Below are positions 8,525-47,013 of a stretch of 64,000 bases of DNA, in pieces. Source of the DNA: Promethearchaeota archaeon (GTDB lineage Archaea; Asgardarchaeota; Heimdallarchaeia; Hodarchaeales; Hodarchaeaceae); contig JBHLMN010000012.1 of NCBI GenBank assembly GCA_048938105.1, forward strand, positions 1-64,000. The letters are read 5' to 3'. Position 1 is the stretch's first letter, and every line of letters starts with the position of its first letter. The notes beneath the pieces were generated by a model that worked only from the letters and a program-made list of their open reading frames with translations, did no database searches and was not told where the DNA came from. A program made the position numbers and the translations under genes.

Positions 8525-8626
8525 AATAACTAAATCTTTCCTCTCTCGCCTCCTTCTCCCACGCTTCAAAGTTTTCCATATATTCTTCTGCTAATTGTCT
8601 TGCATTACTCACTGGCCTTTTTTTCA
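8525..8626 (-). pseudogene. Remnant of the PIN-toxin/antitoxin module (paralogue of 42082-42823) with the PIN gene deleted
   Basis: Reads MKKRPVSNARQLAEEYMENFEAWEKEAREER vs MSNARKLAEEYMENFEAWEKEAKEER at 42330; upstream DNA resembles 42820-42940; boundaries approximate. Confidence 0.75.
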
Positions 8627-8731
8627 TTTCAACCCAATGGTATTTACAATTTTAAGAATTTATAAAGGTATATTGTAATCTTACATCTCAATAAAGAATA
8701 ATAAGCATTTTTGATGGATAATTTGGGTTCA

Positions 8732-8759
8732 ATGTCACAAAAGGCTGGATTAGCACTTA
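8732..8759 (-). repeat. dif-like site (class I)
   Basis: atgtcacaaaa-ggctgg-attagcactta. Confidence 0.85.
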
Positions 8760-28732: not shown

Positions 28733-30457
28733 TCATTGGAAATTAACCTTCATGAACTCATGAGGGAAATCAAGTGCATTGAAGAATAAAGGGGTTCCAG
28801 AGAAAGATAAAGGAGAAATTGGACCAATCGTCATGAAAGGAAATTCTCGTTTTCCAAGAGCACTTTGTGGATCTTTAAACATCTGATAGAGTTTCAAGGC
28901 TTCGTTTTGACCTCCTATGATTTCCAAGAGCGCCTGTCTTTCTATACCCCAGCTAAGACCAAATCCAAACAGATAAATACGGATTTGTTCAACTATTCGT
29001 CTATCTAAGCTAGATAGAGTCTGACTAATAAACATCCAACCAAGTCCATACTTTCTAGTAGTTCGGACACCATCAATGAATCTTGCTTTTAGTAATTCTA
29101 AGTCTTCTATTGGTGATTTTTCTCGTGGGGCTAGTCGGTGAGCTTCATCGATTACTACTAAGGTGTTCAGGAGATTCCCTGCTTTGTATGATTCCTCTGC
29201 AATGTTAGTTAGCTGTTTAACAAATTCTCCAATTACGATGAATTTTATTGTCTCATTCCAAAATAAATCATCAGGAATTGCCATTTCTGATAGGTCAATG
29301 ATGCTAATATTCCCCTTTTCTTCTTGAATCTCCTTTACAAGTTTCGAAATTATAATTGAGTATTCTTTTCCTTCATATTTAAACAGATTACAGACTTTGT
29401 TCCATTTTTCTTTTATTTCAGCTTTATTATCTTCACTAAAAGAATCACTAACCCGATTTCTCAAATCTTGGGAAGAATAAATTCTTGCGATGATTGATTC
29501 TTTTTTCATCTCAAACCAGAATCTTTCAAAAGCCCCGTCTTTGTAGGTTTCCCATGTTTTAATCGATTTTGGATTTTCACATTTTAGAATTCGAACTAAT
29601 TCATTCGCAGCTTGCATTTGATTTGTTTCATGGTGGATCCCAAGATCTTTAAAGAAATCAGAATAAATCATAATCTTTTTAAATAGATCCCAACCGCTAA
29701 GTACAAGATTATGTAAACTAACAAATTTAACCTTTTTGTTGAAGGTCTGTGTTATTAAAGATCGAATTTGAGGATTACTATTGATTTTTTCAGAGAATTC
29801 TCCTTGAGGATCCAACACAAATAACCCCATCTCTGAATGTCGTGCGTAAGCAAGCATAATCATCAGGGAGAGATACGATTTTCCTGAACCAGTTTTACCA
29901 AATACTCCTAAGTGATAAGCTTCATTTGCTCCCTGTTCTCCCTTACCAAAATGTTTGAACCACATAGGCATTTTAATGTCAGTACCATAAGATTTTCCTA
30001 AATAGAATAGTTGATCACTCAAATGTGCAAATAATGAATTCATTATGTCCTCATTAAACAATTTTACTGGTGTACCAGTTGGGGGAATAGTACCAAGGAT
30101 ACTTGGTATAATTTCTTGCGACTCTGACGAAAACACAGAACTAACAGTCATCTGGGCTAGGTGAACATCTTGCTTTTCAGTAATGGGAGCAATTGTACCT
30201 TTCTGCCGTATAAGTCCGCGAATAGTTGGATCTTCGGACCAAGTGTTTCTCATTGTAATTTCTGTAAACTGACTTAACGCAAAGTGCTCATTCTCGTTTT
30301 GAAGATAGTTAAAAATTCCTAAATTTCCAATGAGTCTTTCATTAATAGCTGTTTCTAAAATATCTACATTTATTCGCCCTGTTGAGGAGGGAGAACCAAT
30401 AACACCAACTGATTTAGCGCTGTTGACTATGTCTTTTAATTTTTTATTATTTATCAT
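28733..30457 (-). CDS. herA: HerA/FtsK-family ATPase (DUF87) with N-terminal HAS-barrel-like region
   Basis: HLGVFGKTGSGKS, LDPQGEF, VVIDEAHRL and RKYGLG..ISQ. Confidence 0.88.
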   Translation of the reverse strand: MINNKKLKDIVNSAKSVGVIGSPSSTGRINVDILETAINERLIGNLGIFNYLQNENEHFALSQFTEITMRNTWSEDPTIRGLIRQKGTIAPITEKQDVHLAQMTVSSVFSSESQEIIPSILGTIPPTGTPVKLFNEDIMNSLFAHLSDQLFYLGKSYGTDIKMPMWFKHFGKGEQGANEAYHLGVFGKTGSGKSYLSLMIMLAYARHSEMGLFVLDPQGEFSEKINSNPQIRSLITQTFNKKVKFVSLHNLVLSGWDLFKKIMIYSDFFKDLGIHHETNQMQAANELVRILKCENPKSIKTWETYKDGAFERFWFEMKKESIIARIYSSQDLRNRVSDSFSEDNKAEIKEKWNKVCNLFKYEGKEYSIIISKLVKEIQEEKGNISIIDLSEMAIPDDLFWNETIKFIVIGEFVKQLTNIAEESYKAGNLLNTLVVIDEAHRLAPREKSPIEDLELLKARFIDGVRTTRKYGLGWMFISQTLSSLDRRIVEQIRIYLFGFGLSWGIERQALLEIIGGQNEALKLYQMFKDPQSALGKREFPFMTIGPISPLSFSGTPLFFNALDFPHEFMKVNFQ

Positions 30458-30463
30458 AGATTT

Positions 30464-31591
30464 TCACCCCCATTTAGAACGATATCCGTGCATGGCAAGA
30501 TAAACGTTATTTACATCTCCGTCCCATTGTCTAGTCATGTTTTGAGTTGCAGCTTTACGCAAAGCAGGCAAAGCTACTCTTAAATGCTTAACCATTCTAT
30601 CTGCAAGGTATAATGGAAATGGTTCGAACATTCCAGGAGCATCACACTGTAATTTCAGTGTTTGAAACAAAAGAGATAGTTGATTTTGATCAGTTACGAT
30701 AGGTTTCATTATTTCTAATCGTATTACAGGAAAAGATCTTGAAGGTCTATAATAGAAAACAAAGGAATCATTTAATAATCTTTCAATATCATGGAAAATC
30801 TTACCAGTACTATTTATGGGGATTGCTACATCCTGAAGATCCATTTTATATGGAAAAATCAGCTCTCCTCCTTCTAATACGAATGATAATAAGCCTCGGT
30901 CTTCATATCTGAGCATATTAAATTCTTTACAGATTTCCTTCTTCGTTGTATACTTTGGGACGCCCACATAGGACTTTCCTCCATTATATTCTAGTAATTT
31001 CTTGTAATTTTTAATTGCACTAGGTAGTTGATCAAGAAATTCCTGTTTGAGAATCTCAGGAACGTTATCTAAAGCATTCAAGGCCTTTTTGAAATGAACC
31101 ACTGGTGTGCTTAACGAACCATCGAAAAAAACGATATTATGTGGAGCTTTACTAGCAAGTTCGAGTTCCATACACATCATAAGAGCTCCAGCAACTTGGC
31201 GAGTGGAATCACTGTGACTAATGGAATAGATTTTTGAAAGATGGTGTGGACGTTCCCATTCAGCTGTTGATTTAGGGGGGATTAATCCCTCCACTGCAAC
31301 CCCTGCTACCGCAAGAACATCAACTGATAACAGATTTTCAATAATGAAAGAACCATCAACTCCACAAGTAGTAGGAAGCTCTAGATCATTAGGAAAGTCA
31401 GTATCTTTCATTAAGTAATTTTTTTCCAGCAATTTTTCTCTCAGATTATCTTTCTTGTTAATTATATTTCCAAAAGAAGTAGAAAGCTCATGACTCAGAC
31501 CTGTGCATTGGTTTAACATTTCTTTAACTAACGATTGGGGTAGTTCCGTAAATGGATACGCAACTGAACTACCTAAGCTTAAAATTTCCAC
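30464..31591 (-). CDS. nurA: NurA-family nuclease
   Basis: CGVDGS, MELELA, FFDGSL, GVPK and EPFPLYLADRMVK; upstream of herA. Confidence 0.88.
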   Translation of the reverse strand: MEILSLGSSVAYPFTELPQSLVKEMLNQCTGLSHELSTSFGNIINKKDNLREKLLEKNYLMKDTDFPNDLELPTTCGVDGSFIIENLLSVDVLAVAGVAVEGLIPPKSTAEWERPHHLSKIYSISHSDSTRQVAGALMMCMELELASKAPHNIVFFDGSLSTPVVHFKKALNALDNVPEILKQEFLDQLPSAIKNYKKLLEYNGGKSYVGVPKYTTKKEICKEFNMLRYEDRGLLSFVLEGGELIFPYKMDLQDVAIPINSTGKIFHDIERLLNDSFVFYYRPSRSFPVIRLEIMKPIVTDQNQLSLLFQTLKLQCDAPGMFEPFPLYLADRMVKHLRVALPALRKAATQNMTRQWDGDVNNVYLAMHGYRSKWG

Positions 31592-31873: not shown

Positions 31874-32347
31874 TTATAATCCCTGTAAAAGCCACTCTTT
31901 CAATACATCAAATATAGGATCAATAGCCTGTAAACGATGTAAAAACTGTTTAAAATTCTGGATCCGTTCAACATGGGGAATATCATGTAATTGAACAGGA
32001 TCTGTAGGAAGTCCATAAGTTGTTATATCCACATTATGTTTTTGAGATCGAGAAAGAATCCATGCTTCAATGTAATTTGGAATAATGATCAATTTTATAT
32101 TTTCTGAATCTTGACGACGCATTAAGCGAAGATCTTCATTATTATCAATCTGTACATAATTCCTTAGATCCTTTGGTTGTGTACTTGTAGGATCTTCATC
32201 AACCATTCCGAGTGTACCAAAACCTTTCCGAAGACTATTTATGACTCTTCCTTTACCCGATTCATGACGAATCGAGGTAGCTGGAATTTCAAGAGATTGA
32301 ACAAAATAGAAATCGAGATCACATTCAACTACGATCACCCAAATCAC
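31874..32347 (-). CDS. Small TOPRIM/DUF4435-like partner of the AAA ATPase
   Basis: VVECDLD, GMVDED and IEAWIL acidic motifs; 4-nt overlap with the ATPase gene. Confidence 0.55.
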   Translation of the reverse strand: MIWVIVVECDLDFYFVQSLEIPATSIRHESGKGRVINSLRKGFGTLGMVDEDPTSTQPKDLRNYVQIDNNEDLRLMRRQDSENIKLIIIPNYIEAWILSRSQKHNVDITTYGLPTDPVQLHDIPHVERIQNFKQFLHRLQAIDPIFDVLKEWLLQGL

Positions 32348-33351
32348 ATCTTATAGAATGAGCTGATATTAAAGAATGGATCTTTTTCTGAATCTAAAAT
32401 GTCCTCAACTTCAGATGATGACAAAGATGTAAGTTTAGTTTGATAATCTTCAAAATAGGTAACAAAAGTGTTTGTAGTAGCTTTAGGTGCCTTAGCAAGA
32501 ATTGAAGTCAAGAAATATGGATTATGGGTAGCAATAAAGTACTGATTTCGTGTGTCTAGGGCGATTTTTTCTGCAAGAAGTTTTGTATAATAAGGAAACA
32601 CATGTCCCTCTGGTTCTTCGAACACTAGAATAGAATCTTTATTTGAATTGATCGCAAACATATAGAAGATCATATGTCTTAATGTATTTGATGTGACGAT
32701 ATAGGGATATAAAATAATAGTATCATTAACTTGTTTCTGGATTTCAAAATTAAGGTCTTGTGGTTTGAAAACAAGACTAAAACCGAAGTCTTTAACCATT
32801 TGTTGTATTAATGATCTGTGGGCATTATTACCATAAATCACAGAGAACAAATTAGATCCGTTTGGTGGTAGTAAAAACTCCCTCATTTTACTTTGGAATT
32901 GAATGAGATTTTTGAAACGATAGAATTTTATTGCTTTGAGTAAAGGAAGAATTTCAGTTATAAAATGTCCTGTGGAACTTCCACCTGCATATTCCCCGTT
33001 ATGATTAAACCTAGCTTCACCTTTTGAGCTAGACTCCTGAAGAATAAAAACATCATATTCATATCGCAAAGAGAATGTAATATGGTTGATTCGCATTATA
33101 ATTGAATTTTCGGTTAAATCATCATAAAAAAGATTAGATATGTTTTGAAATCGTACAAAATCACTTAATATTGAAGGATCATAACCCCATGCACTAAGGA
33201 GACCTAAAACTTCTAATAAATTAGATTTACCTGAATTAGGTTCACCTATGAGGAGGTTAATTCGCTGGGGTTTCATTTGTAATTCTTTTATTGATTTGAA
33301 ATTAGAAATAGCCAGATTCTTGATCATCATGAGGAAACCTCCTTTGTGCAA
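32344..33351 (-). CDS. ABC/AAA ATPase (AAA_15/AAA_21, OLD/AbiEii-like)
   Basis: ISNFKSI, LIGEPNSGKSNLLE, VFEEPEGH and IATHNPY. Confidence 0.9.
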   Translation of the reverse strand: MHKGGFLMMIKNLAISNFKSIKELQMKPQRINLLIGEPNSGKSNLLEVLGLLSAWGYDPSILSDFVRFQNISNLFYDDLTENSIIMRINHITFSLRYEYDVFILQESSSKGEARFNHNGEYAGGSSTGHFITEILPLLKAIKFYRFKNLIQFQSKMREFLLPPNGSNLFSVIYGNNAHRSLIQQMVKDFGFSLVFKPQDLNFEIQKQVNDTIILYPYIVTSNTLRHMIFYMFAINSNKDSILVFEEPEGHVFPYYTKLLAEKIALDTRNQYFIATHNPYFLTSILAKAPKATTNTFVTYFEDYQTKLTSLSSSEVEDILDSEKDPFFNISSFYKM

Positions 33352-33598: not shown

Positions 33599-33626
33599 AT
33601 GTCGCAAAAGGCTGGTATAGATAGCA
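33599..33626 (-). repeat. dif-like site (class I)
   Basis: atgtcgcaaaa-ggctgg-tatagatagca. Confidence 0.88.
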
Positions 33627-34565: not shown

Positions 34566-34593
34566 TTTTCGTAAAAGTCTGGATTAGCACCTT
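34566..34593 (-). repeat. dif-like site (class I)
   Basis: ttttcgtaaaa-gtctgg-attagcacctt. Confidence 0.8.
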
Positions 34594-34693
34594 TGGAAAA
34601 TATTTAATGTCAATAATTGAATGATATTGTTTTACACTATTTTTACTAGCCATTATTCAGACAAATTCTTTTAATAAAACTTCTCTACAATTT

Positions 34694-37288
34694 TCATGTG
34701 TCAAAGACACCTTCTTTTATTTTTAGAGGATTTCCTACTAGGAGAAGTTTGACTTCCCCTTGATATTTCAAAGATTTCAGTGAATTTGGTATTTTTTTCA
34801 ACTTATTATAAGACAAATTTAATTGTTTGAGTCTATTTAGTTTCTTTATCGATTCTGGGACATCAATCAGTTGATTATATGATATATTTAAGTTCTGTAA
34901 TTTCTCGAGGTGGCCAATTGTTTCTGGTATGTGTTTTAATTGGTTGTTCCATAAATTTAAAGATTTTAGTTCGGTGAGGTGAGTGATTGTATCAGGTATC
35001 TGTGTTAGTTTGTTATCTGCTAGATCTAAGTTCTGTAATTCCTTGAGATGACCAATTGTTTCTGGTATGTGTGTCAGTCTGTTACTTGACAGATCTAAAT
35101 CTTTTAATTGAGTGAGACGGGTAATTGCGTCAATAAAATTGGTTAGTTGATTGTCTGATAAATTTAAAGATCTTAATTGTGTAAGATGGGTAATTGTGTC
35201 AGGTAAACTAGTCAATAAATTATCTGTGAAGTCCAGATCTTGTAAATGGGTATGTTGTTTTATTGTCTCTGGTATTTGTGTCAGTTGGAGATCAATTAAA
35301 TCTAGATCATAAAATTGATCCAGTTGGTCAGTCGATTCAGGTTGGTTAGTCCTTTGTTTATTTGATAGATCAATAGAAATCAAGTTTCCATTAGTATCAG
35401 GATAAAGATAATCAGAATACGGTGAAGATATATTGGAATTTGAAATTAATTCGAATAACAATTGAGGAATAATCCAACGGTTCTTTCCTGATTTAAGAAT
35501 GGTCCAAATCCATAACTCTTCCCAAATTTCTTTTGGATTTGTACGATTGAATTTTTTCTCTAAAAATTGGTTGGTTTTTTCTATTTCTATGTTTAAAATA
35601 TCTCTTGATCTCTTCAAAAGTGATGAATCGTCACATTGCTGGATAATACTCTTGTACCAATGAGCTAAATTAGTATGAGGAAAAATCCAGTGCTTGTTTT
35701 CCATTTTTCCAATAGATATCAAACCAATTATTCTTGCTATTCCACCTAATCTTTTCCTAATTCGTTTTTGGAGTTTTTTGCCTGGGATTCTGTCAAAATA
35801 CGATTGAACAATTGCTATACGAGCAAGTTCATAACCTATCTTGATAATAATTCGTTCTTGTTCACTAGTGTCGAATCGTTGAGTTTTTCTTTTGTTATAT
35901 TGCAGATAATGATTTATTGAGCTGTGTAAGGTACTCAACAGGATCTTTTCATATAACGTCTTTAAATGATCCAATGTTATTGTCTCATGACAAAACGGGT
36001 CATTTGTCTTGATGATTAGGTCTGACCAACTACTTAATGCCAATCTGGTCAAAACTAGATCGTTTTCTGTTAAACTAATGAAGTGTTTTCGTAATGCTTT
36101 ATAAGGAGGTAAATCCTGTAAATTTCTATCAACAATTGTTGCTTTAAGTAAGGCATCGCAAGACAAAAGAAAATGAAACTCTATTTTTGCATTTTCCATC
36201 CATTGATCTTCAATAAAAGGATTTTCTTCAAGTGGTCGTGATAGAAACCAGGTATGAATTTTTATTGTTTTGTTGTCTTGCTGATTTGCATTATATGATA
36301 AAGTATCACAGATTTTACTTATATTTTTCATAGTTCGGAATGGATCGGTTACCAAATGGAGATCATCCAACACAAAACATATAATTTGATGTTTATTCCA
36401 ATCTGCTTCTGCGATCAGTTTAATATCTTTTTCTAAGGTTTGACTCGTAATATAAGGATCGTCCCAAGTCTTTTCTTTGAATGAATAGTAAAAAGAGTTG
36501 AATTGAAATTCATCTGCCCCTAAATAACGATTCTTTGTTTCAAACATGACTTTACTGAAGGGCTGTTTACTTAAGTCTCTCTCATTCAAAAGATCCTCTA
36601 AAAATGCCATCATGCCTAATGCTTGACTAGTTTTTCCTCCTCCTGCTGATTCTGTTGTAAACGCGACTTGATAATTCGAAAAGGCCTCGATTAAGCGTTT
36701 AAACGCTTTTTCTGAAATTGGTGCCCAGCTTCTAAAATCTGTGAGTGTAACCCAAGGATATAATTCAGAAGTAGTTTTGTTCTTTATCCTAAATATTAAA
36801 GGTGTTTCTTTTAAGTATGATAGACTAAGCTTTGGGGATTTCTTCACTTTTTGCTTTATGGGAATATAATTCTCTGGTTTTAAGACTTCTAATATTGATA
36901 GAACTATCTGCTTCAATCCTTTTTCGGTTTTGATTGCGCTAAGATTAGCTAAAAATGGAGAATGGTGTAAAAAATCGTCACGTGATATTCCATGCCAGAT
37001 TGGCAAAATGAACTTACCCTCTTTGATTTGTCTTTGGATCAAACCATCTAGTTCATATTCAGGCCATTCTTTTGCAAAAAATGCTTGGCTAAAAACAACA
37101 ACGGCAAATCGTGATTTCTGAATTCCTTCGTCTATTTTTTTTCTTAAATTATCCCCGAGAGTTAAACTTATTTCATCATAAAAAACCTTTATTCCATGTA
37201 ATTCTAGATCTTTTGCTAATGGTTTTACAAGCTCCTCCTTGTCTTCAGAAGCATGACAGATAAATAGATCATATGTGAATTCAGACAT
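34694..37288 (-). CDS. TIR - P-loop NTPase - leucine-rich repeat protein
   Basis: TIR (YDLFICHASEDK, FYDE, EWPEYELDGL, ILPIWH); Walker A-like SAGGGKTS and Walker B FVLDDLH; about 8 23-aa LRRs (LxxLDLSxNxLTxIPETIGxL). Confidence 0.88.
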   Translation of the reverse strand: MSEFTYDLFICHASEDKEELVKPLAKDLELHGIKVFYDEISLTLGDNLRKKIDEGIQKSRFAVVVFSQAFFAKEWPEYELDGLIQRQIKEGKFILPIWHGISRDDFLHHSPFLANLSAIKTEKGLKQIVLSILEVLKPENYIPIKQKVKKSPKLSLSYLKETPLIFRIKNKTTSELYPWVTLTDFRSWAPISEKAFKRLIEAFSNYQVAFTTESAGGGKTSQALGMMAFLEDLLNERDLSKQPFSKVMFETKNRYLGADEFQFNSFYYSFKEKTWDDPYITSQTLEKDIKLIAEADWNKHQIICFVLDDLHLVTDPFRTMKNISKICDTLSYNANQQDNKTIKIHTWFLSRPLEENPFIEDQWMENAKIEFHFLLSCDALLKATIVDRNLQDLPPYKALRKHFISLTENDLVLTRLALSSWSDLIIKTNDPFCHETITLDHLKTLYEKILLSTLHSSINHYLQYNKRKTQRFDTSEQERIIIKIGYELARIAIVQSYFDRIPGKKLQKRIRKRLGGIARIIGLISIGKMENKHWIFPHTNLAHWYKSIIQQCDDSSLLKRSRDILNIEIEKTNQFLEKKFNRTNPKEIWEELWIWTILKSGKNRWIIPQLLFELISNSNISSPYSDYLYPDTNGNLISIDLSNKQRTNQPESTDQLDQFYDLDLIDLQLTQIPETIKQHTHLQDLDFTDNLLTSLPDTITHLTQLRSLNLSDNQLTNFIDAITRLTQLKDLDLSSNRLTHIPETIGHLKELQNLDLADNKLTQIPDTITHLTELKSLNLWNNQLKHIPETIGHLEKLQNLNISYNQLIDVPESIKKLNRLKQLNLSYNKLKKIPNSLKSLKYQGEVKLLLVGNPLKIKEGVFDT

Positions 37289-37351
37289 TTATCTTACCTT
37301 ATAAACAACATCTGGTCACTAAGAGCAACAAATAACAATAAAATCATCTCT

Positions 37352-38440
37352 TCATAAATCTTGCAAGAATTTATCCAGACTATGAAGCTCTGAAACCTCT
37401 AAAAGATTATTAGCTGTCATTGTATTTTGATATTGTTTCACATTCTTATAGAACCGTGGGATTGCACGCGAATGTTCTTTAAACTCTCCTTTTTTCATAT
37501 AACCAACGAAATAAATGTTGGTATCGTATATCCATATATTCTCCCAATCATTTTGAAGAATACATACTTTTTCTCGTGTTTTCCTCCTTACTTTAAAACC
37601 GAATTTTGGTTCAATAATCTCTCTAGGCATATCAGTTTCTGCTTTAATTGTTAAAGTTCCTTGAGGAATCATTCCATTAGGTACATGGACATAGAAAAGT
37701 TGAAAGAAACTGTTTTGCGTTTTAGATTTTGGAGGGTTGCCTTTTAAAATTACTTTTTCAAACATAAACTTTCTATAACTTGATGTTCCTCCGATTACGA
37801 TTTCTTTACTATGATCATCTTCGTTATTGGAGATGATAGTGATTCGACCGAGTTGGGATGGTCCATAGGCTTTTATGAACTTCTGAGGTTTCACCCATGC
37901 ATATTCCCAAAAGGAGTGTATAAAGTATTTTTTGTATCTACTTTCTTGGAATGAATCAAGGTCAATACAACCATTATCTGGAGTTAATTTACCAGTTACA
38001 AACGCAAAAATGTAGAAATCATCGTCTATCATTGATTTAGCTTTCAATTGATCTGATGGTACTAAAGCTGCACAATCTAGAAGCCATTTGGTAGATGAAG
38101 GAGATAAATCCCCAATATTCTTTGATTCTAGATAAGAAGAATCAAGATCTAGAAAAAATGATTTGATATCACATTTGTGAGTGTTTATAGTAAGACTATA
38201 ACGATCAACATCGTACCACTTGGTTCCCCTTTCTTTTTCATACATTACGTTTTTAGTTTCTAGTAACTCTTCAAAAGCAAGTTCAGGAATGATTCCCTTT
38301 ACAAGATTTTTCATCCGGTAATATGGATTTGCGCTTGACATTCTATTAAAGGTCGAGTTTAAAGCTTTTTCTGCATATTTTATACCTTGAAGTATCCATT
38401 TGTCTTTGGTTTCTATGTGTATTATATCTTCATCAAGCAT
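37352..38440 (-). CDS. Hypothetical protein, possible PD-(D/E)XK endonuclease
   Basis: GIIPELAF...D...KCDIKS arrangement resembles an REase active site. Confidence 0.45.
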   Translation of the reverse strand: MLDEDIIHIETKDKWILQGIKYAEKALNSTFNRMSSANPYYRMKNLVKGIIPELAFEELLETKNVMYEKERGTKWYDVDRYSLTINTHKCDIKSFFLDLDSSYLESKNIGDLSPSSTKWLLDCAALVPSDQLKAKSMIDDDFYIFAFVTGKLTPDNGCIDLDSFQESRYKKYFIHSFWEYAWVKPQKFIKAYGPSQLGRITIISNNEDDHSKEIVIGGTSSYRKFMFEKVILKGNPPKSKTQNSFFQLFYVHVPNGMIPQGTLTIKAETDMPREIIEPKFGFKVRRKTREKVCILQNDWENIWIYDTNIYFVGYMKKGEFKEHSRAIPRFYKNVKQYQNTMTANNLLEVSELHSLDKFLQDL

Positions 38441-39003
38441 TTTTTATCTCTCATAGCATGAAAAGTTTGTGGTTTTAGCTAAAGTAAAAACTTTTCTCTG
38501 CTTTAGTGTACGTAAGTATAAATCGGATTCTAATCACTTTTTATTTGGCTTCTGAAAGAATACACAATGGATTATAATTTTGAAAAACTGTTCTTTAATA
38601 GGCTTAAAACTTCTTTAATCTTATCTCTTGGATTCATTTTTCTACTTTTCATTTTGAAACGATAAACCCTCATCAAGAGTCTAGGATCTTAATTTCAGAG
38701 ACATTAACAGAAATGGGTGTTACAAAGGGTAGTTTAATTAATCTAGATACTAATGGAACTTCTGAAAAAGCACATTGTTAAACTAACCTCCCAGATATTT
38801 GTAAAAAGTTCGATAGCTATTTTCTAGTTTGATCTAAGTTAATTTATTAATTTTTTACACAGATAAGATAAGAGTAAATGGACTTTTAATAGCAAATTAA
38901 AGAGATAAATTTTAGTTATAATGATTAGATAATGCTTTATTATTCAATTGAACAATAGCTAGAAAAGTCGATTAGTATAATCATTAGCTTTATTCGAAAA
39001 GAA

Positions 39004-39981
39004 ATGGAATTGAGATATGTTATGTATCAAGACTATATTATTTATCTTCGTCAAGGAGCAGACCGATGGAATACTTGGCGTCATAAAAATCCTAGAATAA
39101 AACCTAATCTATCACGACAGATATTTCCTAAACTTGATTTGTCAGAATTTGACTTTTCTTACACCGATTTTTCCAACTCGAATCTTTCTGAATTGAACCT
39201 ATCAGAATCAGTGTTGTATAAAGCTAATTTTTCATATTCTGATCTTTCTAATACCGATCTTTCGAAAACAAGCCTATATTATACTACTTTTTTTCGAACT
39301 GATCTAAGGAATACTAATTTTTCTCTATCTAAACTACGTGGTACGAGTTTCACTTTCACTGATCTTAGTCAATCTAAATATTTAGATACAATCGAACATC
39401 AAGGTCCGAGCAGCATTGATATCTCTACTCTTCATCAGTCAAAAAAACTTCCTAAAAGCTTTTTACGGGGATTAGGAGTTCCTGAACTGTATATCAGGAA
39501 TCTTTCAGTATTTATTACACATGAATGGCAATTCTATACCTGTTTTATTTCCCATAGTAGTCATGATAAGGCTTTTGTACGAAAGCTTTATAATGCTCTT
39601 CAACATCAAGGAATCCGTTGTTGGTATGATAAAGAAGATGCTACATGGGGGAAAGAAATCAAACCGATTCTTAATGAAAAAATCGAAGAGTTTGACAAAG
39701 TTGTGGTTGTTTGCAGTGAAGATTCCCTCAAATCAGAATGGGTAAATCATGAGATTGAAAGAGCTTTGCAAAAGGAAGAAAAGAACCGAGAAATCGAATC
39801 TATACCTGAAATCTTATTCCCTATAATAATAGATAAGTCCCTCTCTAATTGGCTAAATCATCTAAAGAAGTTTGGAGTAGAACGTATTATCGGGGACTTC
39901 TATGATTGGAGGAGTCCAATAAAATTTAATCAGAGCCTCACACGATTGGTGCAGGCCTTAAAGAGTGATTCCCCACGATAA
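39004..39981 (+). CDS. Pentapeptide-repeat + TIR domain protein
   Basis: WNTWR then (S/A)NLSx/TDFSx repeats; TIR CFISHSSHDKAF, WYD and SEWVNHEI. Confidence 0.9.
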   Translation: MELRYVMYQDYIIYLRQGADRWNTWRHKNPRIKPNLSRQIFPKLDLSEFDFSYTDFSNSNLSELNLSESVLYKANFSYSDLSNTDLSKTSLYYTTFFRTDLRNTNFSLSKLRGTSFTFTDLSQSKYLDTIEHQGPSSIDISTLHQSKKLPKSFLRGLGVPELYIRNLSVFITHEWQFYTCFISHSSHDKAFVRKLYNALQHQGIRCWYDKEDATWGKEIKPILNEKIEEFDKVVVVCSEDSLKSEWVNHEIERALQKEEKNREIESIPEILFPIIIDKSLSNWLNHLKKFGVERIIGDFYDWRSPIKFNQSLTRLVQALKSDSPR

Positions 39982-40044
39982 TACAATAATGTAATCTAAC
40001 CCTAACTTGGATTTTATAAAACTATGATTTTCTTTATTACCTCC

Positions 40045-40458
40045 CTACTCATGATATGCAGTATATTGAAAAGCATGAGTTAAGGCTCTTCTTATATTTA
40101 TTCTGTCCCACTGAAAGATAGGAATACTCTTAGTCGAAATGAGGTGTGGTGGTACGAAGCGATTTGGAGTAACAACAATAGCTGCAATTCCGATATGTAG
40201 AGAACTCGCCACTGATAATTCATGGTCGACCCACTCACTTTGAAAGGTATTTTGTCCAAGTAAACAAACCAAAGCACGGCAGGGATTAATCAATTCATTG
40301 AGATATTTTCGCACTTCATCATACCCATATATTCTATAATCCTCTCGTGCTGAAATCGGGGTATGATTAAATTTGGCATTGGGATTTTGCATTAGTCCTT
40401 CAAATGCTTCTCGATAGTCTCGATCTTTTTCCTTATAACTAACGAAAACTTTTGCCAT
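40045..40458 (-). CDS. Stand-alone TIR domain (ThsB/MTH538-like)
   Basis: KVFVSYK, LVCLLGQNT and SEWVDHEL. Confidence 0.85.
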   Translation of the reverse strand: MAKVFVSYKEKDRDYREAFEGLMQNPNAKFNHTPISAREDYRIYGYDEVRKYLNELINPCRALVCLLGQNTFQSEWVDHELSVASSLHIGIAAIVVTPNRFVPPHLISTKSIPIFQWDRINIRRALTHAFQYTAYHE

Positions 40459-40665
40459 ATTTTCTACGCCAAAGTATTACTTAATTTCTAGTTAAGAAGG
40501 AATACATCATATACATGTTCGAAAAGTTTATTTATTATACTTATTAGATTCTTCCTAAAAATCCTTCAACGATTAATAGCACTATAAAGTAAAAAGGTTG
40601 AGGGAATTAAGTTATCCAAATAAAGAATCAAAATTGTGTTATCAATAAAAACATGGGGAAGTTAA

Positions 40666-41202
40666 ATGACTAAGCGACACAAAGTATTTTTATGTTTTCA
40701 TCATGAAAATGATGAGAACTATAAGAACCAATTCGAGCAAAAATTTGGTAGTTTGTATGTATCAAAATCAGTGGAGATAGGAGACATTGATCCTAATTTA
40801 AAAACAGAAACAATAAGACGTAAGATAAGAGATGAATATTTAAGAGATTCAACTGTAACAGTTGTTCTTGTTGGCAAAGAAACATGGAAAAGAAAACATG
40901 TGGATTGGGAAATTTCTTCTAGTATTCGACATACTCAATACAATCCTAGATCTGGTCTCCTAGGACTTATTCTGCCCACACATCCAAATTTTTCTACAGA
41001 AACATATGATCCGCATATCATTCCTCCACGATTATATGATAATATTGAATGTGGATTTGCTAAAATTTATAATTGGACCGATGATGTTTCAACAATTGAA
41101 CAGCGTATCCATGACGCTTTTCAACGTAAGGATAAAATTCTACCAGACAATTCAAGATTACTCTTCAAGAATAACCGCTCTGGGGATAAATGGCAAGATT
41201 GA
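40666..41202 (+). CDS. Stand-alone TIR domain (ThsB/DUF1863-like)
   Basis: HKVFLCFHH, IRDEYLRDSTVTVVLVG and RKHVDWEI. Confidence 0.88.
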   Translation: MTKRHKVFLCFHHENDENYKNQFEQKFGSLYVSKSVEIGDIDPNLKTETIRRKIRDEYLRDSTVTVVLVGKETWKRKHVDWEISSSIRHTQYNPRSGLLGLILPTHPNFSTETYDPHIIPPRLYDNIECGFAKIYNWTDDVSTIEQRIHDAFQRKDKILPDNSRLLFKNNRSGDKWQD

Positions 41203-41332
41203 AAAAACAAATTTTCCAATTAGAACTAATCTCAGTTTAAATTCGTCTTTTTCCTTAGTATCATTTAAAAAGAGAAATTTAGCTCCTCTTGGAACAGAAA
41301 ACCTTTTCTCATATTTAAATGAGGAGTTTATT

Positions 41333-41863
41333 ATGCCAAAAGTAAAAGAGGTTACTGTTAATATCGGAGTTAAGGATGTTTTTTCAATAAGTGGTACTTT
41401 TGTTCCAAACAAAAATGAAGAAGAGGCTGCCTGGGAATTATATGTAGAATTGATAACCCGAATCACAGTTGTTAAGCTAAAAAAAGACAAAGGTTTTCTG
41501 AGAGAAGCATTAAATTCTTATCATAGTTTATTTAAGACAACAAGGGGAATTATGCGGGAAAAAGGCCCAGATTTAGCAAGACCCAAATCAAGTAGTAAAA
41601 TTACACTTGGTTTAATAGCTGTTTCAGTTTTAAATTATGTTTTAAGGCCATTGCTGACAGAATGGCACCCAATTTTAGAAGATTATGAATCGACACGTCC
41701 AAAAAACCTTTCACGAAAAGCTCATGAAGATAAATGGGAAAACAACAAAGACCTAAGAGATAAAATTGCTGAGACTAGAGAAACTTTACTACATTATGCC
41801 CAGCTACTTGCTGATATTGCAAAAGTTGAACCAATCCACATTGTTCCAGCTCCTCTTACCTAG
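41333..41863 (+). CDS. Conserved-looking helical hypothetical protein downstream of the TIR gene
   Basis: GAGGAG RBS before ATG 41333; AAWELYVELITRI...LRPLLTEWHP. Confidence 0.7.
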   Translation: MPKVKEVTVNIGVKDVFSISGTFVPNKNEEEAAWELYVELITRITVVKLKKDKGFLREALNSYHSLFKTTRGIMREKGPDLARPKSSSKITLGLIAVSVLNYVLRPLLTEWHPILEDYESTRPKNLSRKAHEDKWENNKDLRDKIAETRETLLHYAQLLADIAKVEPIHIVPAPLT

Positions 41864-42006
41864 AGGGATTAAGAAGTTCCAGTGTTGAAATTATTTCAAA
41901 TTGATAAACATCCACATTGCGAATTGTTGGTTCTCATTCATGTAATTTATAACAGCTCATATCTAATTACAAATAATCTGTACAACTATGGAATTTTTTT
42001 TCTCAA

Positions 42007-42034
42007 ATGTCGTCAAACCAGCCTGAGAGAAGCT
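42007..42034 (+). repeat. dif-like site (class II)
   Basis: atgtcgtcaaa-ccagcc-tgagagaagct. Confidence 0.9.
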
Positions 42035-42081
42035 TTCTGAGGGAATAGAAGCCCCTAAGAAAGATAATTAATTGTAAAATA

Positions 42082-42330
42082 CTACCCTCTAGAGACTCCT
42101 AGCTCATCTAACAAGTTAACAAAGTCCAAAACACTCATCTCAGCAATGGAAGCGGCACCTTCATAAAGTCGAAATTCAACAAATAATTTAATTGCCTCAA
42201 TCTGCTTTTTAGTACATTTATTCTTAATTAAATCCCAATTAACTGATTTTCGCCTTTCTTCTTTCGCCTCCTTCTCCCAAGCTTCAAAGTTTTCCATATA
42301 TTCTTCTGCCAATTTTCTTGCATTACTCAT
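42082..42330 (-). CDS. UPF0175-like antitoxin
   Basis: C-terminal AIKLF...GAASIAEMSVLDFVNLLDELGV HTH; overlaps the PIN gene. Confidence 0.65.
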   Translation of the reverse strand: MSNARKLAEEYMENFEAWEKEAKEERRKSVNWDLIKNKCTKKQIEAIKLFVEFRLYEGAASIAEMSVLDFVNLLDELGVSRG

Positions 42331-42823
42331 GATTACCATACCTTTGTTTTATACGAAAAAGATCTTTGGTTGAGTAAGTGCCAAGGAGTTTATCAAAAAA
42401 ATCTATTTTAATCTTACCCAATTCTAATAATCGAGTAAAGAAATAAGTACCTCTGAATATTTTGACTTCGGAATATTCTTGATGATGTTTTCGTATATAC
42501 CAGGGGGCAAAATTATCACTAATAACGAGGAAATATCCCCGCGATAGAGACAGAACTAATGTTTCAATTTCACTAACATGTTTTCCAGCATATTGAGAGG
42601 AAAATTCTTCATGTAATACATTGAATCTTTCTCTTTCAGCTGTTGTCAATTCTTCTTTCGTCATACAATTCAATTTCTCTAAATCACGATGAAATTGAAA
42701 AGATTCCTTCCATACTTCTGGAGAAATTAATATTTCATCAAAAACATCACAAAGATACTTTATAACTTCCAATCTCTTTAGATTAACTAGAAAAGAAGTA
42801 TCTAGCACCGTTTTTTCTTTCAT
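42323..42823 (-). CDS. PIN-domain toxin (DUF3368-like)
   Basis: VLDTSFL, ISPEVWKE, SEIETLVL and ISDN. Confidence 0.8.
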   Translation of the reverse strand: MKEKTVLDTSFLVNLKRLEVIKYLCDVFDEILISPEVWKESFQFHRDLEKLNCMTKEELTTAERERFNVLHEEFSSQYAGKHVSEIETLVLSLSRGYFLVISDNFAPWYIRKHHQEYSEVKIFRGTYFFTRLLELGKIKIDFFDKLLGTYSTKDLFRIKQRYGNHE

Positions 42824-42927
42824 TTCAACCTAAGGGAATTGTAAGATTTGAGAATTTATAAAGATATGTGGTTATCTTATGTTACAATTTAGATTTGTTG
42901 AAGTTTTTGGTGAATAATTTTGAACTA

Positions 42928-42955
42928 ATGTCGTAAAAGGTTGATTTGCCACATA
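42928..42955 (-). repeat. dif-like site (both arms fairly close to consensus)
   Basis: atgtcgtaaaa-ggttga-tttgccacata. Confidence 0.8.
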
Positions 42956-43065: not shown

Positions 43066-46000
43066 TTAATTTAAATACTCAGATTTTTTAATGATTATAA
43101 TTTCTTCTTTCTTATAATCAATTTCAATAGTTAATTTATTTTTTATCTTTATTACACTATAAATTAAATCTAGAAATTCGAGAGTCTCTTCAATATACCA
43201 CTTTGGTTTTAATTGCTTATCTAATATTAAATTTGGTTGAAGTAGTTTTTCCAATCTTAAAATTGAGGTTTCATTTTCATATATTTGAATATCTTGTAAA
43301 TTAGATAAAATGTGTGAATTCCATGGACAGGGGATTTTTTCAGAAAAGACATAGAAATAAAACTGATCTAATCTCTCAACAAGTTCAAGTATATCTGATG
43401 TCCATGGGTTTAGATTTCTACCCATTAATATAACACGTTTTTCGATATTATCGCATAATTCCTCAATAATTTTTAGAAATTCAATTTTTTGTTCTGTTTT
43501 CACTGTATTGAGGAATTTAATAATTCTAAAATAGTCTCGCAAATCTAAATTTGCTAATATTTCTCTCTCATCAATATTTGGAATAGGAATATAACTTTCA
43601 AAGCTTTTTAGTCTTTTATTTAAATCTTGAGGTAATCCTCGTCTCCATTTATTATCTCCAAACAATATTCTTGTATAATTAAAAATAAAATTCTTTAATT
43701 TTTCTTCAAGAATGACTTTAATTTTGTTAATCGCTAAATCAAAATTATTACTTTCTACATTTCTCCTGATATCATTGAGAAGAATTTTATCCTCTCTCCA
43801 AATTCCCTTTCCCTTCAATGAAAACCAAATATCCCACTGTACAAACCTTTTTAATCTTGAAACCAAGTCCTTAATTGTTGACAAGTAATCTGAAATTAAT
43901 CTAGTTTTATCATCTAAAGAAGGACTTATTTTTAACATAAAAGATTTTAATAATTTTGCAAAATACGTGACTACTTCCAATTCATACCAAGAATTTTCAT
44001 GAAATTCTAATGCTTCTTCGTAATTCTGTACTTCGGAATCACATTGAATTACATAAGCCATTAAGAGCGAAGAAAATGATTCTTGAATTATTTCAACATT
44101 AAATTTCGCTAATGATGATTCTTTGGCAATTCGTAATGATTTGGAGAATTGATATACTTCTTTATACCCTCTGGCTGCACTGACTAATTTTTCAATAAAA
44201 GCACTTCCATATTCTTCTCCCCTCTTAATTGTATTCTCAAGGGCTAGTAATACTTCATCTTCATATTCTTCGGGTATTTCTTTAACAAAGTAAAGAGATG
44301 GAATAATATTGACAGGATTTACACTATAGATATGGTTTATTTTATTGAAATAGTCATTACAATTTTCATTTATAGTCCATGATGGTTCCTGATCCGTTTC
44401 TTTCTTTATTAACAGTCCAACGGAGAAAAGATGAATAATTAATTCTCTGTTCTTAAGAAAATCGTAACTTCCCTCAATAATCGGATCACTCAACCATATA
44501 TCTTCTAAAACTTTAATTAATCGTTCAAATGTATCACGATTTGATTCTGTTCTCGTTTTAAGTTCTTGAAAAGCCTTATGTAATTGGTTATGGCTTCTTT
44601 CAATATCTTTTCTTGCATTTCTTATTTCAACATCATCTTCTCTTATTGTTATTGAATCTTCTGTAAATTCCAATCGTTTAAATCTCTTGATAAGAATTTC
44701 AATATAATCACGAAAAGTCTTGATCGGACGACCAGGATGTTTTTCCATTTTGGACAATCTAACTAAGTAATCTCTTGTGATAGAAGGAGCATTCTCGACC
44801 TCAATTGAAAATACTTTGAGTCTATGATTTATCATTGCTAAAGCTTCATCAATAGTAACTGAAGACATTGGATGATAATCATCAACACTCCCAGATATTG
44901 ATCTATCTCCCTTTATTCTCTGCGAAAGCTCATCAATCGCAGAAAAAAAGAAAGAAGTAGAGATTTCATGAGAAAAATCTTTTCTATAAATTTGAAGAGA
45001 TGTTATAAATCCAATAATCTCTTCCATATACTCTCCAATACTTGAATGCTTGTAGATATCTTCAATGAAAATTATTAATGCCTTTTTAACCGTTGATAAG
45101 GTTTTAAGCATAATAAGGCAATCTTCTTCAGGATCTATTTCTTCTGGAGTATAATCAAATTCATTTTGATGTACTTTTTTCAAGTGTGAACGTAATTTTA
45201 CGAAAAATTTTCTCTTTATTTCAACTACTCGCTCTCTTGCGTCTAAAGAAAAGATTATCACAATTGTATCATTATAATGCAGATTGATTAATCGATTCAT
45301 ATATTGAAATAATGTTGTTTTTCCAGATCCAAAAGCACCGTAAACACACATTGTTATGTTCTTAATGGAGGAAAAATTCCTTAGAATCGCATGTTTGAAT
45401 TGGTTTATCGAATTTGTTGGATAGATTATTTCATCATAGTATTCAGGATTAATATTACTTAATCCATCTTTAGATGGAAAAGGATTTTCTTTCAAACCAA
45501 GCCGTTTATACCAATCTAAATATTCAATGTTATCCTCGACTTCTTCTGAGGGAAGAGGAGGAAGGAATTCAACAGGACGATCTTTATATCGTTCTATAAC
45601 TGAGGCACTTCTCTTTCTATATTTTTCGAGTTCTTTAGTCATTGTAGATAATTCTTTTTGTAATTCAATTAATTTAATATCCTTTCTACGTCTTGAAAGA
45701 TGATCCTGAATGCTCTCTTCTCGTGATTCAAAGTATCTTTCATTATAATAATCTAATATTCGATTATGATAATACTGAATTTGTTTTAAAAGAAAAATTT
45801 CTTTCAAAGCTTCATATAATTTTTCAAAATTGATAATTAAATCCTTTGAAATTAAATATTTCAGAAAATTTAAAGCAAAATCCTCAATATTAAGGCTAGA
45901 AACAGATTTCATTTGCTTTCTAATTGTTATCAATTCTTCTTTTGAGTTCGCTCTTGTAATCTTCTTTTGATTTCTATAAAAAAAGATTTCTAATTCTTTT

Positions 46001-47013
46001 GTGATTTCATAATCCTTTAGAGGATCAGAAATTTCTTCAGAAATTTCTTTCTCTCTATAAGGTAAGCTAAACCTTATGATACCATCTTTCCTTGCTTCTG
46101 GAGAAACTGAAGTATCACTTGGGCAAAAATTAAGGCCTCTTTCAGTATGAAAATAAGAATGAATCCCTCTAGCGGTATATGGATCATAATCAAGAATAGA
46201 GAATCTATACCTATATTTTTCTGGATTCCTCTTTTCAGGTAAATAAAGTGTCCCCATAATGAATGTTATATATTCTCTTTCTCTAGAAATTTCTTTTTTT
46301 ATATAAGAATCAGGATAATGCTCATGGCCAACAACTACTATATCAAAACTTTTCCCAATTTTCATTTCTAAGTTGCGACGATTGTTAGGATATAAGCAAT
46401 GAGGGGGATGGTGTTGTACTAAAATAGACAAATTAAAATCATTTTTATCTTTAAAGGTATCTTTGATACCGTCAATATGAATAAAGGATGGCAATTTATC
46501 TTGGGCTAAAGAATTTGCTAAACATGAATTGAGCGATGTGATATTTATCTTGAATTTACTAATATCTACGGTTTTAGTGTAACCAAAAATTGAGTGTTTT
46601 TCGCATAAAAATCGTTCTTGAAATCTGATATAATTACTGAAGGCGTTATCTACATGAACTTTAAAATCAGAGGAGGAGAAAATTTCTTCAAATTTCATAC
46701 TATTTGGTGTTTCTATATATTTAAAAGCTGTACCTAATGAATCACGGTTATAGTCATGATTTCCAGGTGTAAAGAAGAATCTAGAGCTATCAATATTAAG
46801 ACTGTGTCTTAATCTTTCAAAAAAGAGTAACGCCTTATCATATTGATCAACTTTCCCTTCTGATGTAATGTCTCCTGGTACAACGACTAAGTCAACTCTA
46901 TTTTCAGCTACAATCATTTGATCAAAATGGTTAATAATTTTATCGAAAATTCTGTCTTGTAGATTATCATTACTAACCATATGAAGATCTGAAAAGATAG
47001 CTATTGTAACCAA
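43066..47013 (-). CDS. Metallophosphoesterase - P-loop NTPase - helical/Swt1-HEPN-like multidomain defence protein
   Basis: FSDLH, VPGD, PGNHD, HHP and GHEH; LKENPF then YGAFGSGKTT and IFIEDI; KWRRGLP...LDLRDYFRII. Confidence 0.8.
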   Translation of the reverse strand: MVTIAIFSDLHMVSNDNLQDRIFDKIINHFDQMIVAENRVDLVVVPGDITSEGKVDQYDKALLFFERLRHSLNIDSSRFFFTPGNHDYNRDSLGTAFKYIETPNSMKFEEIFSSSDFKVHVDNAFSNYIRFQERFLCEKHSIFGYTKTVDISKFKINITSLNSCLANSLAQDKLPSFIHIDGIKDTFKDKNDFNLSILVQHHPPHCLYPNNRRNLEMKIGKSFDIVVVGHEHYPDSYIKKEISREREYITFIMGTLYLPEKRNPEKYRYRFSILDYDPYTARGIHSYFHTERGLNFCPSDTSVSPEARKDGIIRFSLPYREKEISEEISDPLKDYEITKELEIFFYRNQKKITRANSKEELITIRKQMKSVSSLNIEDFALNFLKYLISKDLIINFEKLYEALKEIFLLKQIQYYHNRILDYYNERYFESREESIQDHLSRRRKDIKLIELQKELSTMTKELEKYRKRSASVIERYKDRPVEFLPPLPSEEVEDNIEYLDWYKRLGLKENPFPSKDGLSNINPEYYDEIIYPTNSINQFKHAILRNFSSIKNITMCVYGAFGSGKTTLFQYMNRLINLHYNDTIVIIFSLDARERVVEIKRKFFVKLRSHLKKVHQNEFDYTPEEIDPEEDCLIMLKTLSTVKKALIIFIEDIYKHSSIGEYMEEIIGFITSLQIYRKDFSHEISTSFFFSAIDELSQRIKGDRSISGSVDDYHPMSSVTIDEALAMINHRLKVFSIEVENAPSITRDYLVRLSKMEKHPGRPIKTFRDYIEILIKRFKRLEFTEDSITIREDDVEIRNARKDIERSHNQLHKAFQELKTRTESNRDTFERLIKVLEDIWLSDPIIEGSYDFLKNRELIIHLFSVGLLIKKETDQEPSWTINENCNDYFNKINHIYSVNPVNIIPSLYFVKEIPEEYEDEVLLALENTIKRGEEYGSAFIEKLVSAARGYKEVYQFSKSLRIAKESSLAKFNVEIIQESFSSLLMAYVIQCDSEVQNYEEALEFHENSWYELEVVTYFAKLLKSFMLKISPSLDDKTRLISDYLSTIKDLVSRLKRFVQWDIWFSLKGKGIWREDKILLNDIRRNVESNNFDLAINKIKVILEEKLKNFIFNYTRILFGDNKWRRGLPQDLNKRLKSFESYIPIPNIDEREILANLDLRDYFRIIKFLNTVKTEQKIEFLKIIEELCDNIEKRVILMGRNLNPWTSDILELVERLDQFYFYVFSEKIPCPWNSHILSNLQDIQIYENETSILRLEKLLQPNLILDKQLKPKWYIEETLEFLDLIYSVIKIKNKLTIEIDYKKEEIIIIKKSEYLN

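Follow-up and report, generated by a model that had tools for sequence, protein, structure and literature searches.

Does an archaeal gene encode an immune receptor of the NLR type, with effector, switch and sensor in one polypeptide, and where would such a receptor come from? The question is raised by P0001, a gene on the minus strand (34694-37288) of a 64,000-nucleotide stretch of contig JBHLMN010000012.1, here called the window. Its product of 864 amino acids joins a TIR domain, a NOD-like module and LRRs. A sequence-only reading of the DNA had pointed to this order of TIR, P-loop module and LRRs, likened it to the plant TIR-NB-LRR receptors (TNLs) and considered it notable if the host were an Asgard archaeon. 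The domain order was borne out, and the host belongs to the Hodarchaeota according to TldD, which is encoded in the window and shows 79-80 % identity to proteins from Candidatus Hodarchaeota metagenome-assembled genomes (MAGs). The host genome of 5.85 Mb is 99 % complete and clusters with 20 genomes of the same genus. The open reading frame (ORF), the TIR with its glutamate, the LRRs, the Asgard host and the setting in a defence island are confirmed observations; most likely, P0001 is functional and encodes an NLR-like sensor for abortive infection, specific to its lineage and built from modules of bacterial type.

The frame of P0001 starts with ATG and runs over 864 codons with zero internal stops. 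At 32 % G+C the chance of such a frame is negligible, with about 0.08 stops per random codon by our own estimate. A Logan contig of 21.9 kb also encodes the identical protein, and the genes around it are the same. The G+C contents of the parts coding for TIR, centre and LRRs are 0.33, 0.32 and 0.32, and that of the window is 0.33. All strings quoted in the sequence-only reading are present: WPEYEL at residues 75-80, SAGGGKTS at 212-219, VLDDLH at 304-309 and FPH at 537-539. An orthologue of P0001 was found neither in the 20 same-genus genomes nor in 399 Asgard genomes.

The TIR domain and the LRR sensor

The N-terminal TIR domain was recognized by Pfam (TIR_2, E-value 2.4e-19, residues 9-100). 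It covers residues 4-139 (36872-37279, minus strand) and is of the bacterial AbTir/TcpB/PdTIR type according to its Pfam, PADLOC and PDB matches. PADLOC models matched the TIR alone (PDC-S66 at 1.2e-54, ThsB1 at 1e-30). The sequence search of the PDB returned 7uwg (AbTir) at 2.1e-38, 8g83 at 4.6e-38 and 4lqc at 1.8e-32; in this search plant TIRs ranged from 5e-8 to 3e-6 against 1e-32 to 1e-38 for bacterial TIRs. A hand count from the alignment with AbTir gave 54 identical residues at 102 aligned positions, about 53 %. AbTir, TcpB and PdTIR (7uwg, 8g83, 4lqc, 3h16) are short TIR proteins with coiled-coil N-termini, whereas the TIR of P0001 forms the N-terminal head of an 864-residue sensor; the catalytic glutamate and the tryptophan before it are conserved. 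The glutamate noted earlier at the catalytic position is Glu79 (codon 37052-37054, minus strand), the predicted catalytic residue of the NADase site within W-P-E-Y-E-L, and it aligns with the sole glutamate of W-T-N-Y-E-L in AbTir. The catalytic glutamate of AbTir is E208 (PMC10022894), to which Glu79 would correspond by number. AbTIR produces a cyclic ADP-ribose (cADPR) isomer, 2'cADPR, and lowers cellular NAD+ (PMC10022894). Since the identity to AbTir is about 53 %, Glu79 is kept and AbTir is active, the TIR of P0001 is likely a competent NADase. The most similar TIRs reside in proteins of about 490 amino acids, behind an unrelated N-terminal region; these proteins were considered as truncated relatives of P0001 and rejected, as their TIR is located at the C-terminus.

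The C-terminal LRR sensor spans residues 636-864 (34697-35383, minus strand). About eight canonical LRRs had been predicted, and by eye eight repeats of 23 amino acids were found at residues 661-846, flanked by one degenerate repeat on the N-terminal and one partial repeat on the C-terminal side. The consensus is LxxLxLxxNxLxxIPxxIxxLxx. Pfam assigned the region from about residue 680 to 855 to LRR_8 (2.1e-27) and LRR_14 (1.5e-20), and the coding DNA has a tandem period of 69 bp that agrees with the 23-residue repeat. The repeats are 37-50 % identical to those of bacterial ROCO and TIR-LRR proteins. A post-LRR (C-JID) domain is absent: P0001 ends about 19 residues past the last full repeat.

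The central module

The centre of P0001, about 490 amino acids, is a sequence orphan in which the motifs of a nucleotide-binding switch occur in order. A linker with an N-terminal extension of the centre (residues 140-205; 36674-36871, minus strand) has no Pfam, NCBIfam or PADLOC match. It is followed by a putative nucleotide-binding domain (residues 206-380; 36149-36673, minus strand), for which motifs, hhalign and the ESM Atlas speak. This part starts with the first beta strand and the Walker A motif (YQVAFTTESAGGGKTS, residues 206-219) and continues with the Walker B motif IICFVLDD (residues 300-307), a sensor-1-like motif WFLSRP (residues 346-351) and the motif L-L-S-x-D-A-x-x-L (residues 374-382). 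Sequence and Atlas assign residues 381-635 (35384-36148, minus strand) to the putative helical and winged-helix part of the NOD plus a helical spacer. Here lies, last in order after LLSxDAxxL, the winged-helix motif WIFPHTNLAHWY with the conserved histidine (W-I-F-P-H-T-N-L-A-H-W-Y, residues 534-545; 35654-35689, minus strand). Walker B is canonical (hhhhDD). Walker A, ESAGGGKTS, keeps GK[ST] and begins with Glu instead of the Gly/Ala of GxxxxGK[ST].

The arginine of the sensor-1-like motif and the histidine of IFPH (residues 536-539) are collinear at the usual NACHT-like spacing, by a pattern that was written post hoc. Walker A, Walker B, SRP and F-x-H follow each other at distances of 89, 44 and 189 residues in P0001 and of about 85, 39 and 200 residues in the Asgard NACHT protein L040. 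An hhalign comparison with L040 (PGSGKST, LLLIIDG, IIYSSRP) brought the first three motifs into register with a marginal P of 0.02 and placed the winged-helix motif of P0001 near FIHRQFQEFLA. A regular expression for the four motifs at the spacings of P0001 matched P0001 only among 4206 ORFs of the genome of at least 150 amino acids, none of 20,000 shuffles and two of eight long Asgard Pfam-NACHT proteins (L049 and L050), none of which had been used in writing it. L049 likewise lacks the first Walker A glycine and has a serine there (SEGGSGKTS). The open frames of L049 (G085:C9) and L050 (G147:C10) comprise 1749 and 1037 amino acids and carry Pfam-NACHT matches. The ten best family-bearing language-model neighbours in the ESM Atlas were all STAND or related AAA proteins, with the families NPHP3_N, NACHT, NB-ARC, nSTAND3 and AAA_16; the best neighbour had a score of 0.92 and shared 179 of 256 features. 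The structural neighbours of the Atlas ESMFold model (predicted local distance difference test, pLDDT, 0.58) were STAND proteins of the MalT type with a template modelling score of about 0.5 and 300-340 residues aligned across residues 142-634.

A considerable number of results weigh against a STAND assignment of the centre. Residues 140-680 retrieved only P0001 itself in a word search of 5.8 billion proteins, and an exhaustive phmmer search of 1.84 billion representatives matched the first LRRs alone. A six-frame search of the 399 Asgard genomes with the centre as query gave two chance-level matches only, and phmmer against the ORFs of the own genome gave none. Profiles of STAND families in Pfam, NCBIfam and PADLOC were silent on residues 140-650 even at E <= 10, and Pfam at the same threshold on three sub-pieces of the centre yielded ORC1_wHTH at 0.03 only, which was judged to be noise. 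The PADLOC TIR-NLR model PDLC03015 was not among the matches of P0001 at E <= 0.1. The NACHT and NPHP3_N models, applied genome-wide at E <= 10, matched dozens of generic P-loops and not P0001. PDB sequence searches with residues 140-680, 190-370 and 370-630 found nothing relevant, and an AF2 model of residues 130-690, calculated without an alignment, reached a pLDDT of 34.7 and was unusable for a fold search. Alignments by hhalign of the centre to self-built STAND or NACHT-like profiles were marginal (P 0.008-0.02): 0.014 for nSTAND1 from 20 Bacteroidota loci, 0.02 for the long Asgard NACHT proteins and 0.015 for the Asgard NACHT-like protein of about 415 amino acids. The alignments began at the P-loop with all three profiles, and with nSTAND1 the P-loop alone was aligned. 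Pairwise BLASTP and hhalign comparisons of P0001 with L049 and L050 were not significant. Added to this are the glutamate at the first Walker A position and the post hoc origin of the regular expression, written after the sequence of P0001 had been seen, so that all it demonstrates is that the collinear motifs hardly arose by chance, and not STAND membership. According to the Atlas, one third of shuffled proteins also yield ten concordant families, and its figures were never measured on parts of proteins.

The NACHT-like protein of about 415 amino acids used for one of the profiles is conserved in many Asgard genomes and has the motif DEPLRKICITGPTGSGKTT. A NACHT search of the Asgard genomes at E <= 1e-18, which was too strict, gave no match, and an NB-ARC search at 1e-8 gave one locus.

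In sum, the sequence-only reading of the centre as a STAND module is backed by the Atlas neighbours and by the order and spacing of the motifs, and lacks a profile match, a related PDB sequence and a confident fold. On the strength of the Atlas features and structural neighbours together with the motifs, we consider the centre to be probably a NACHT-like STAND NTPase. Its NOD has most likely diverged beyond the reach of current profiles. For the whole protein, our preference goes, with less assurance, to a single-polypeptide NLR-like (STAND-type) antiviral sensor of the Hodarchaeota archaeon; the STAND fold, the dependence on nucleotides, the oligomerisation, the NADase activity and the antiviral role are what we infer for it. 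The C-terminal LRR solenoid would be the ligand sensor, the central module of about 430 residues a very divergent NACHT-like P-loop NTPase switch composed of nucleotide-binding domain, helical domain and a winged helix with an ADP-contacting histidine, and the N-terminal AbTir-type TIR the effector. At rest, the NOD would keep P0001 monomeric and bound to ADP. Once the LRRs have bound a viral protein, P0001 would be released from this state, and nucleotide exchange would lead to an oligomerisation that brings the TIRs together and forms composite active sites around Glu79. These sites would cleave NAD+, with depletion or cADPR isomers as outcome, and the infected cell would no longer support the virus, a case of abortive infection.

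The failure of all profile and PDB searches on the centre and the non-canonical Walker A with its first glutamate would also suit a TIR-X-LRR sensor that has no functional NTPase. In that case the centre would be a degenerate pseudo-NTPase or an unrelated scaffold of an alpha/beta and a helical part that merely spaces or oligomerises the protein, and clustering of the LRRs on their ligand would control the TIR directly, as in TIR-LRR proteins. TIR-LRR proteins without a NOD do exist; examples are P0024, whose TIR covers residues 1-135 and whose LRRs begin at about 170, and P0028 of Promethearchaeota, and one of these proteins comes from an Asgard MAG. However, P0001 retains GKT, hhhhDD, SRP and F-x-H, all of them in canonical order and spacing, the neighbours by language model and by ESMFold are uniformly STAND proteins, and L049, a genuine Asgard NACHT protein, deviates at the same Walker A position. 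We regard this alternative as rather unlikely. Far less credit, close to none, is given to the idea that P0001 is what is left of a ROCO protein (LRR-Roc-COR with TIR) after decay of the GTPase, which the sequence-only reading had named among the outcomes that would contradict it. The closest LRR relatives are indeed mostly bacterial LRR-Roc-COR proteins, several of which contain a TIR, too (P0031, P0035, P0048, P0064, P0068, P0125 and P0129). But the Roc and COR models of Pfam (PF08477, PF16095, PF25497) recorded for the LRR relatives are silent on P0001 at E <= 10, the NKxD and DxxG motifs are absent and the Atlas neighbours are STAND and not Ras-like. In addition, the domain order is opposite: LRRs precede Roc in ROCO proteins, and are C-terminal in P0001.

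The defence island around P0001

Genes for HerA and NurA, for an ABC ATPase of the AriA/GajA-like kind and for a phosphoesterase of the PDC-S60-like kind lie within 20 kb of P0001, as do three other TIR genes. The 20-kb island has no DNA-level synteny in the 20 same-genus genomes, where scattered matching pieces were found, none of them over P0001. Two short sites recur in the window. Site A, ATGTCGTCAAACCAGCCT, has seven copies between 18971 and 42024, all on the plus strand, with 0.04 expected; site B, GTCGCAAAAGGCTGGATT, has nine copies between 8734 and 61604, seven on the plus and two on the minus strand, with 0 expected. Common to both is the arm GTCG.CAAA, after which comes CCAGCCT in one or the other orientation, and both are located between gene modules. 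The arrangement resembles a row of cassettes with recombination sites at their borders. An 18-nt copy of site B (34568-34585, plus strand), 110 nt past the stop of P0001, and an 18-nt copy of site A (42007-42024, plus strand) form the edges of a module, 34586-42006, that holds P0001, the upstream gene P0002 and the three other TIR genes, thus four TIR genes in 7.4 kb. The three are a pentapeptide-repeat-TIR gene (39004-39981, plus strand), a ThsB-like TIR gene (40045-40458, minus strand) and a second ThsB-like TIR gene (40666-41202, plus strand). PDLC03015, the PADLOC TIR-NLR model, matched the TIR of the neighbouring pentapeptide-TIR protein. A small ORF with a product of about 176 amino acids follows the TIR genes at about 41333-41863, its start being probably at about 41333.

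P0002 (37352-38440, minus strand) encodes a protein of 362 amino acids with a PD-(D/E)xK nuclease fold, is co-oriented with P0001 and lies 63 nt upstream of it; a Shine-Dalgarno-like AAGGTAAG precedes the start of P0001. The family of P0002 comprises about 44 proteins, mostly of Chloroflexi, and two Asgard members at 53 % and 41 % identity. In the family alignment D91 and K93 are invariant and E53 is nearly so. The protein carries an inserted beta-sandwich, and Foldseek of its model against the PDB gave nothing at E <= 0.001. Homologues of P0002 adjoin an RNase_T exonuclease and helicases, a peptidase, or a toxin-antitoxin pair, and never TIR or STAND genes. A role as dedicated partner of P0001 was therefore rejected. 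Because the neighbours of the homologues differ, P0002 is probably an independent gene of the island and P0001 a single-gene system.

The company of four TIR genes in one module bounded by recurrent sites, and the PADLOC match of ThsB1 to the TIR of P0001, suggest a comparison with Thoeris. P0001 could be the NLR-type sensor of a four-TIR, Thoeris-like module, and its TIR would then make a small-molecule signal, such as a nucleotide, for an unrecognised effector of a new kind in the same module; candidates are P0002 and the product of about 176 amino acids. The orientation and the distance of P0002 and the AAGGTAAG before the start of P0001 are compatible with co-transcription, and the inserted beta-sandwich could bind a ligand. 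If true, the module would be a Thoeris-like system of an archaeon, with an effector of a new class and with an NLR as one of its sensors. We judge it improbable: a ThsA-type effector (SIR2-SLOG or TM-Macro) is missing among the module genes, in which Pfam, NCBIfam and PADLOC found no SIR2, SLOG or Macro domain, and the homologues of P0002 occur without TIR or STAND neighbours. Moreover, AbTir-type TIRs deplete NAD+ on their own, and their 2'cADPR does not stimulate ThsA (PMC10022894). The singleton nature of P0001, with an orthologue found nowhere, and its place in an island prone to recombination, next to 1.3 kb of gene-free DNA with three site copies, could also indicate a recent, non-functional chimera or a decaying gene, another outcome that the earlier reading had named as contradicting it. 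Against this stand the intact 864-codon frame in AT-rich DNA and the full retention of catalytic and structural motifs, the G+C content, which is uniform across the parts and equal to that of the host, and the start of the TIR at residue 4, right after a plausible ribosome-binding site. Nor does the genome contain a near-identical donor, the nearest TIR being 32 % and the nearest LRR 41 % identical. Decay or recent chimerism is in our view very improbable, and the single-gene antiviral sensor is retained as the preferred reading of P0001.

The gene-free stretch downstream of P0001 (33352-34693) has no ORF of more than 66 amino acids and sites at 33601, 34297 and 34568; it may consist of empty or decayed cassettes. 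Beyond the far edge of the module, 42075-42938 shares with 8536-8747 a partial repeat within the window (93 % over 76 nt). In contrast to the remainder of the island, this stretch is found again, at 83-91 % identity, in two genomes of the genus (G067 and G068), and it may be a mobile or site-associated small cassette. The HerA-like ATPase (574 amino acids) and NurA (375 amino acids) are encoded as an isolated pair at 28733-31591 on the minus strand; mre11 and rad50 were not seen among the ORFs scanned. The AriA/GajA-like ABC ATPase gene (32344-33351) adjoins this pair. On the other side, 43066-47013 (minus strand) encodes a protein of 1315 amino acids with an internal P-loop and an N-terminal calcineurin-like phosphoesterase that matches the PADLOC candidate system PDC-S60 (7.9e-23). 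Rfam had no match on the whole window, and tRNA genes were not found.

Relation to known receptors and origin

The premise that prokaryotic receptors usually carry TPR, WD40 or ankyrin sensors and that TIR-NB-LRR is the plant layout proved to be overstated, as bacterial TIR-NOD and NOD-LRR proteins have been published. Bacterial NACHT proteins with an N-terminal TIR, or with C-terminal LRRs (bNACHT16), were described by Kibby et al. (preprint 10.1101/2022.07.19.500537), who showed for some bNACHT proteins a defence against phage and for a mutation of the winged-helix histidine a hyperactivation; this histidine is the equivalent of H443 in NLRC4 and would correspond to H539 in P0001. A review lists TIR-NBD-(LRR/WD40/TPR) proteins in plants and bacteria (PMC9153377), a TIR-NLR defence system has been validated (PMC9122126), and 'Rst2TM TIR-NLR' is listed among the systems whose frequency is higher in Asgard genomes than elsewhere among prokaryotes (PMC11291487). 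No description of a prokaryotic protein with TIR, NOD and LRR in a single chain was found; literature matches to exact phrases for this combination were plant papers throughout. Among the 120 best full-length relatives of P0001, a list ranked mainly by LRR score and not a census, TIR, NB-ARC and LRR occurred together in plant TNLs only, and the prokaryotic TIR and LRR proteins were either without a NOD or with Roc-COR.

Of the bacterial systems, the bNACHT proteins come close to P0001 in the layout of effector, NOD and repeat sensor, in a family that has N-terminal TIRs and C-terminal LRRs, in the location in a defence island and in the NACHT-like motif syntax with an SRP sensor-1 and the F-x-H winged-helix histidine. 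They differ in that the centre of P0001 is undetected by the NACHT hidden Markov model (HMM) and begins its Walker A with a glutamate, and in the archaeal host of P0001. The Rst TIR-NLR (PMC9122126) and the Avs or antiviral STAND proteins are likewise single-gene antiviral proteins, with TIR and STAND parts, but P0001 is matched neither by PDLC03015 nor by any Avs model. Bacterial nSTAND1-LRR proteins, present in Bacteroidota (P0038, P0121 and the Cytophagales locus L032), have a STAND module followed by ROCO-like LRRs; in contrast to P0001 they lack a TIR and their NODs are recognised by Pfam.

With plant TNLs such as ROQ1 and RPP1, P0001 shares the order from N- to C-terminus, the catalytic glutamate of the TIR and the expected logic of an NADase induced by oligomerisation. 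The differences are extensive. P0001 has no NB-ARC match (PF00931) and no MHD or GLPL motif, and its TIR is bacterial, with an E-value of 2e-38 to AbTir against 3e-6 to ROQ1. The repeats, only about ten, are of the 23-residue ROCO/SHOC2-like kind, and no C-JID/post-LRR domain follows. With 864 residues the protein is less than two thirds as long as the ROQ1 chains in the PDB (1306-1328 residues). Since the TIR is of bacterial type and the motifs are NACHT-like rather than NB-ARC-like, the likeness to plant TNLs is, as judged from the sequences, one of layout and convergent, not ancestral. From the alternative left by the sequence-only reading, a convergent or an ancestral receptor, the convergent part fits; an ancestral origin conflicts with the AbTir/TcpB-type TIR, the absence of NB-ARC and the lack of an orthologue. 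A kinship between the Asgard lineage of this orphan NOD and the ancestors of the eukaryotic NLR switches is without support and hardly plausible. P0001 seems to be a new combination, specific to its lineage, of parts that were known from bacteria before.

The Hodarchaeales are among the closest known archaeal relatives of eukaryotes, and NLR-like receptors in this group therefore bear on the assembly of eukaryotic innate immunity. As the NOD of P0001 is invisible to Pfam, NCBIfam and PADLOC, surveys of archaeal NLRs based on HMMs undercount such genes. If active, P0001 would offer with its 864 residues a compact TIR-NLR for mechanistic work. As P0001 shows, parts of bacterial type can give rise in an Asgard archaeon to the complete TIR-NOD-LRR order of the plant TNLs. 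This favours the view of the tripartite NLR plan as a recurrent and convergent design that is neither a plant invention nor the result of vertical inheritance.

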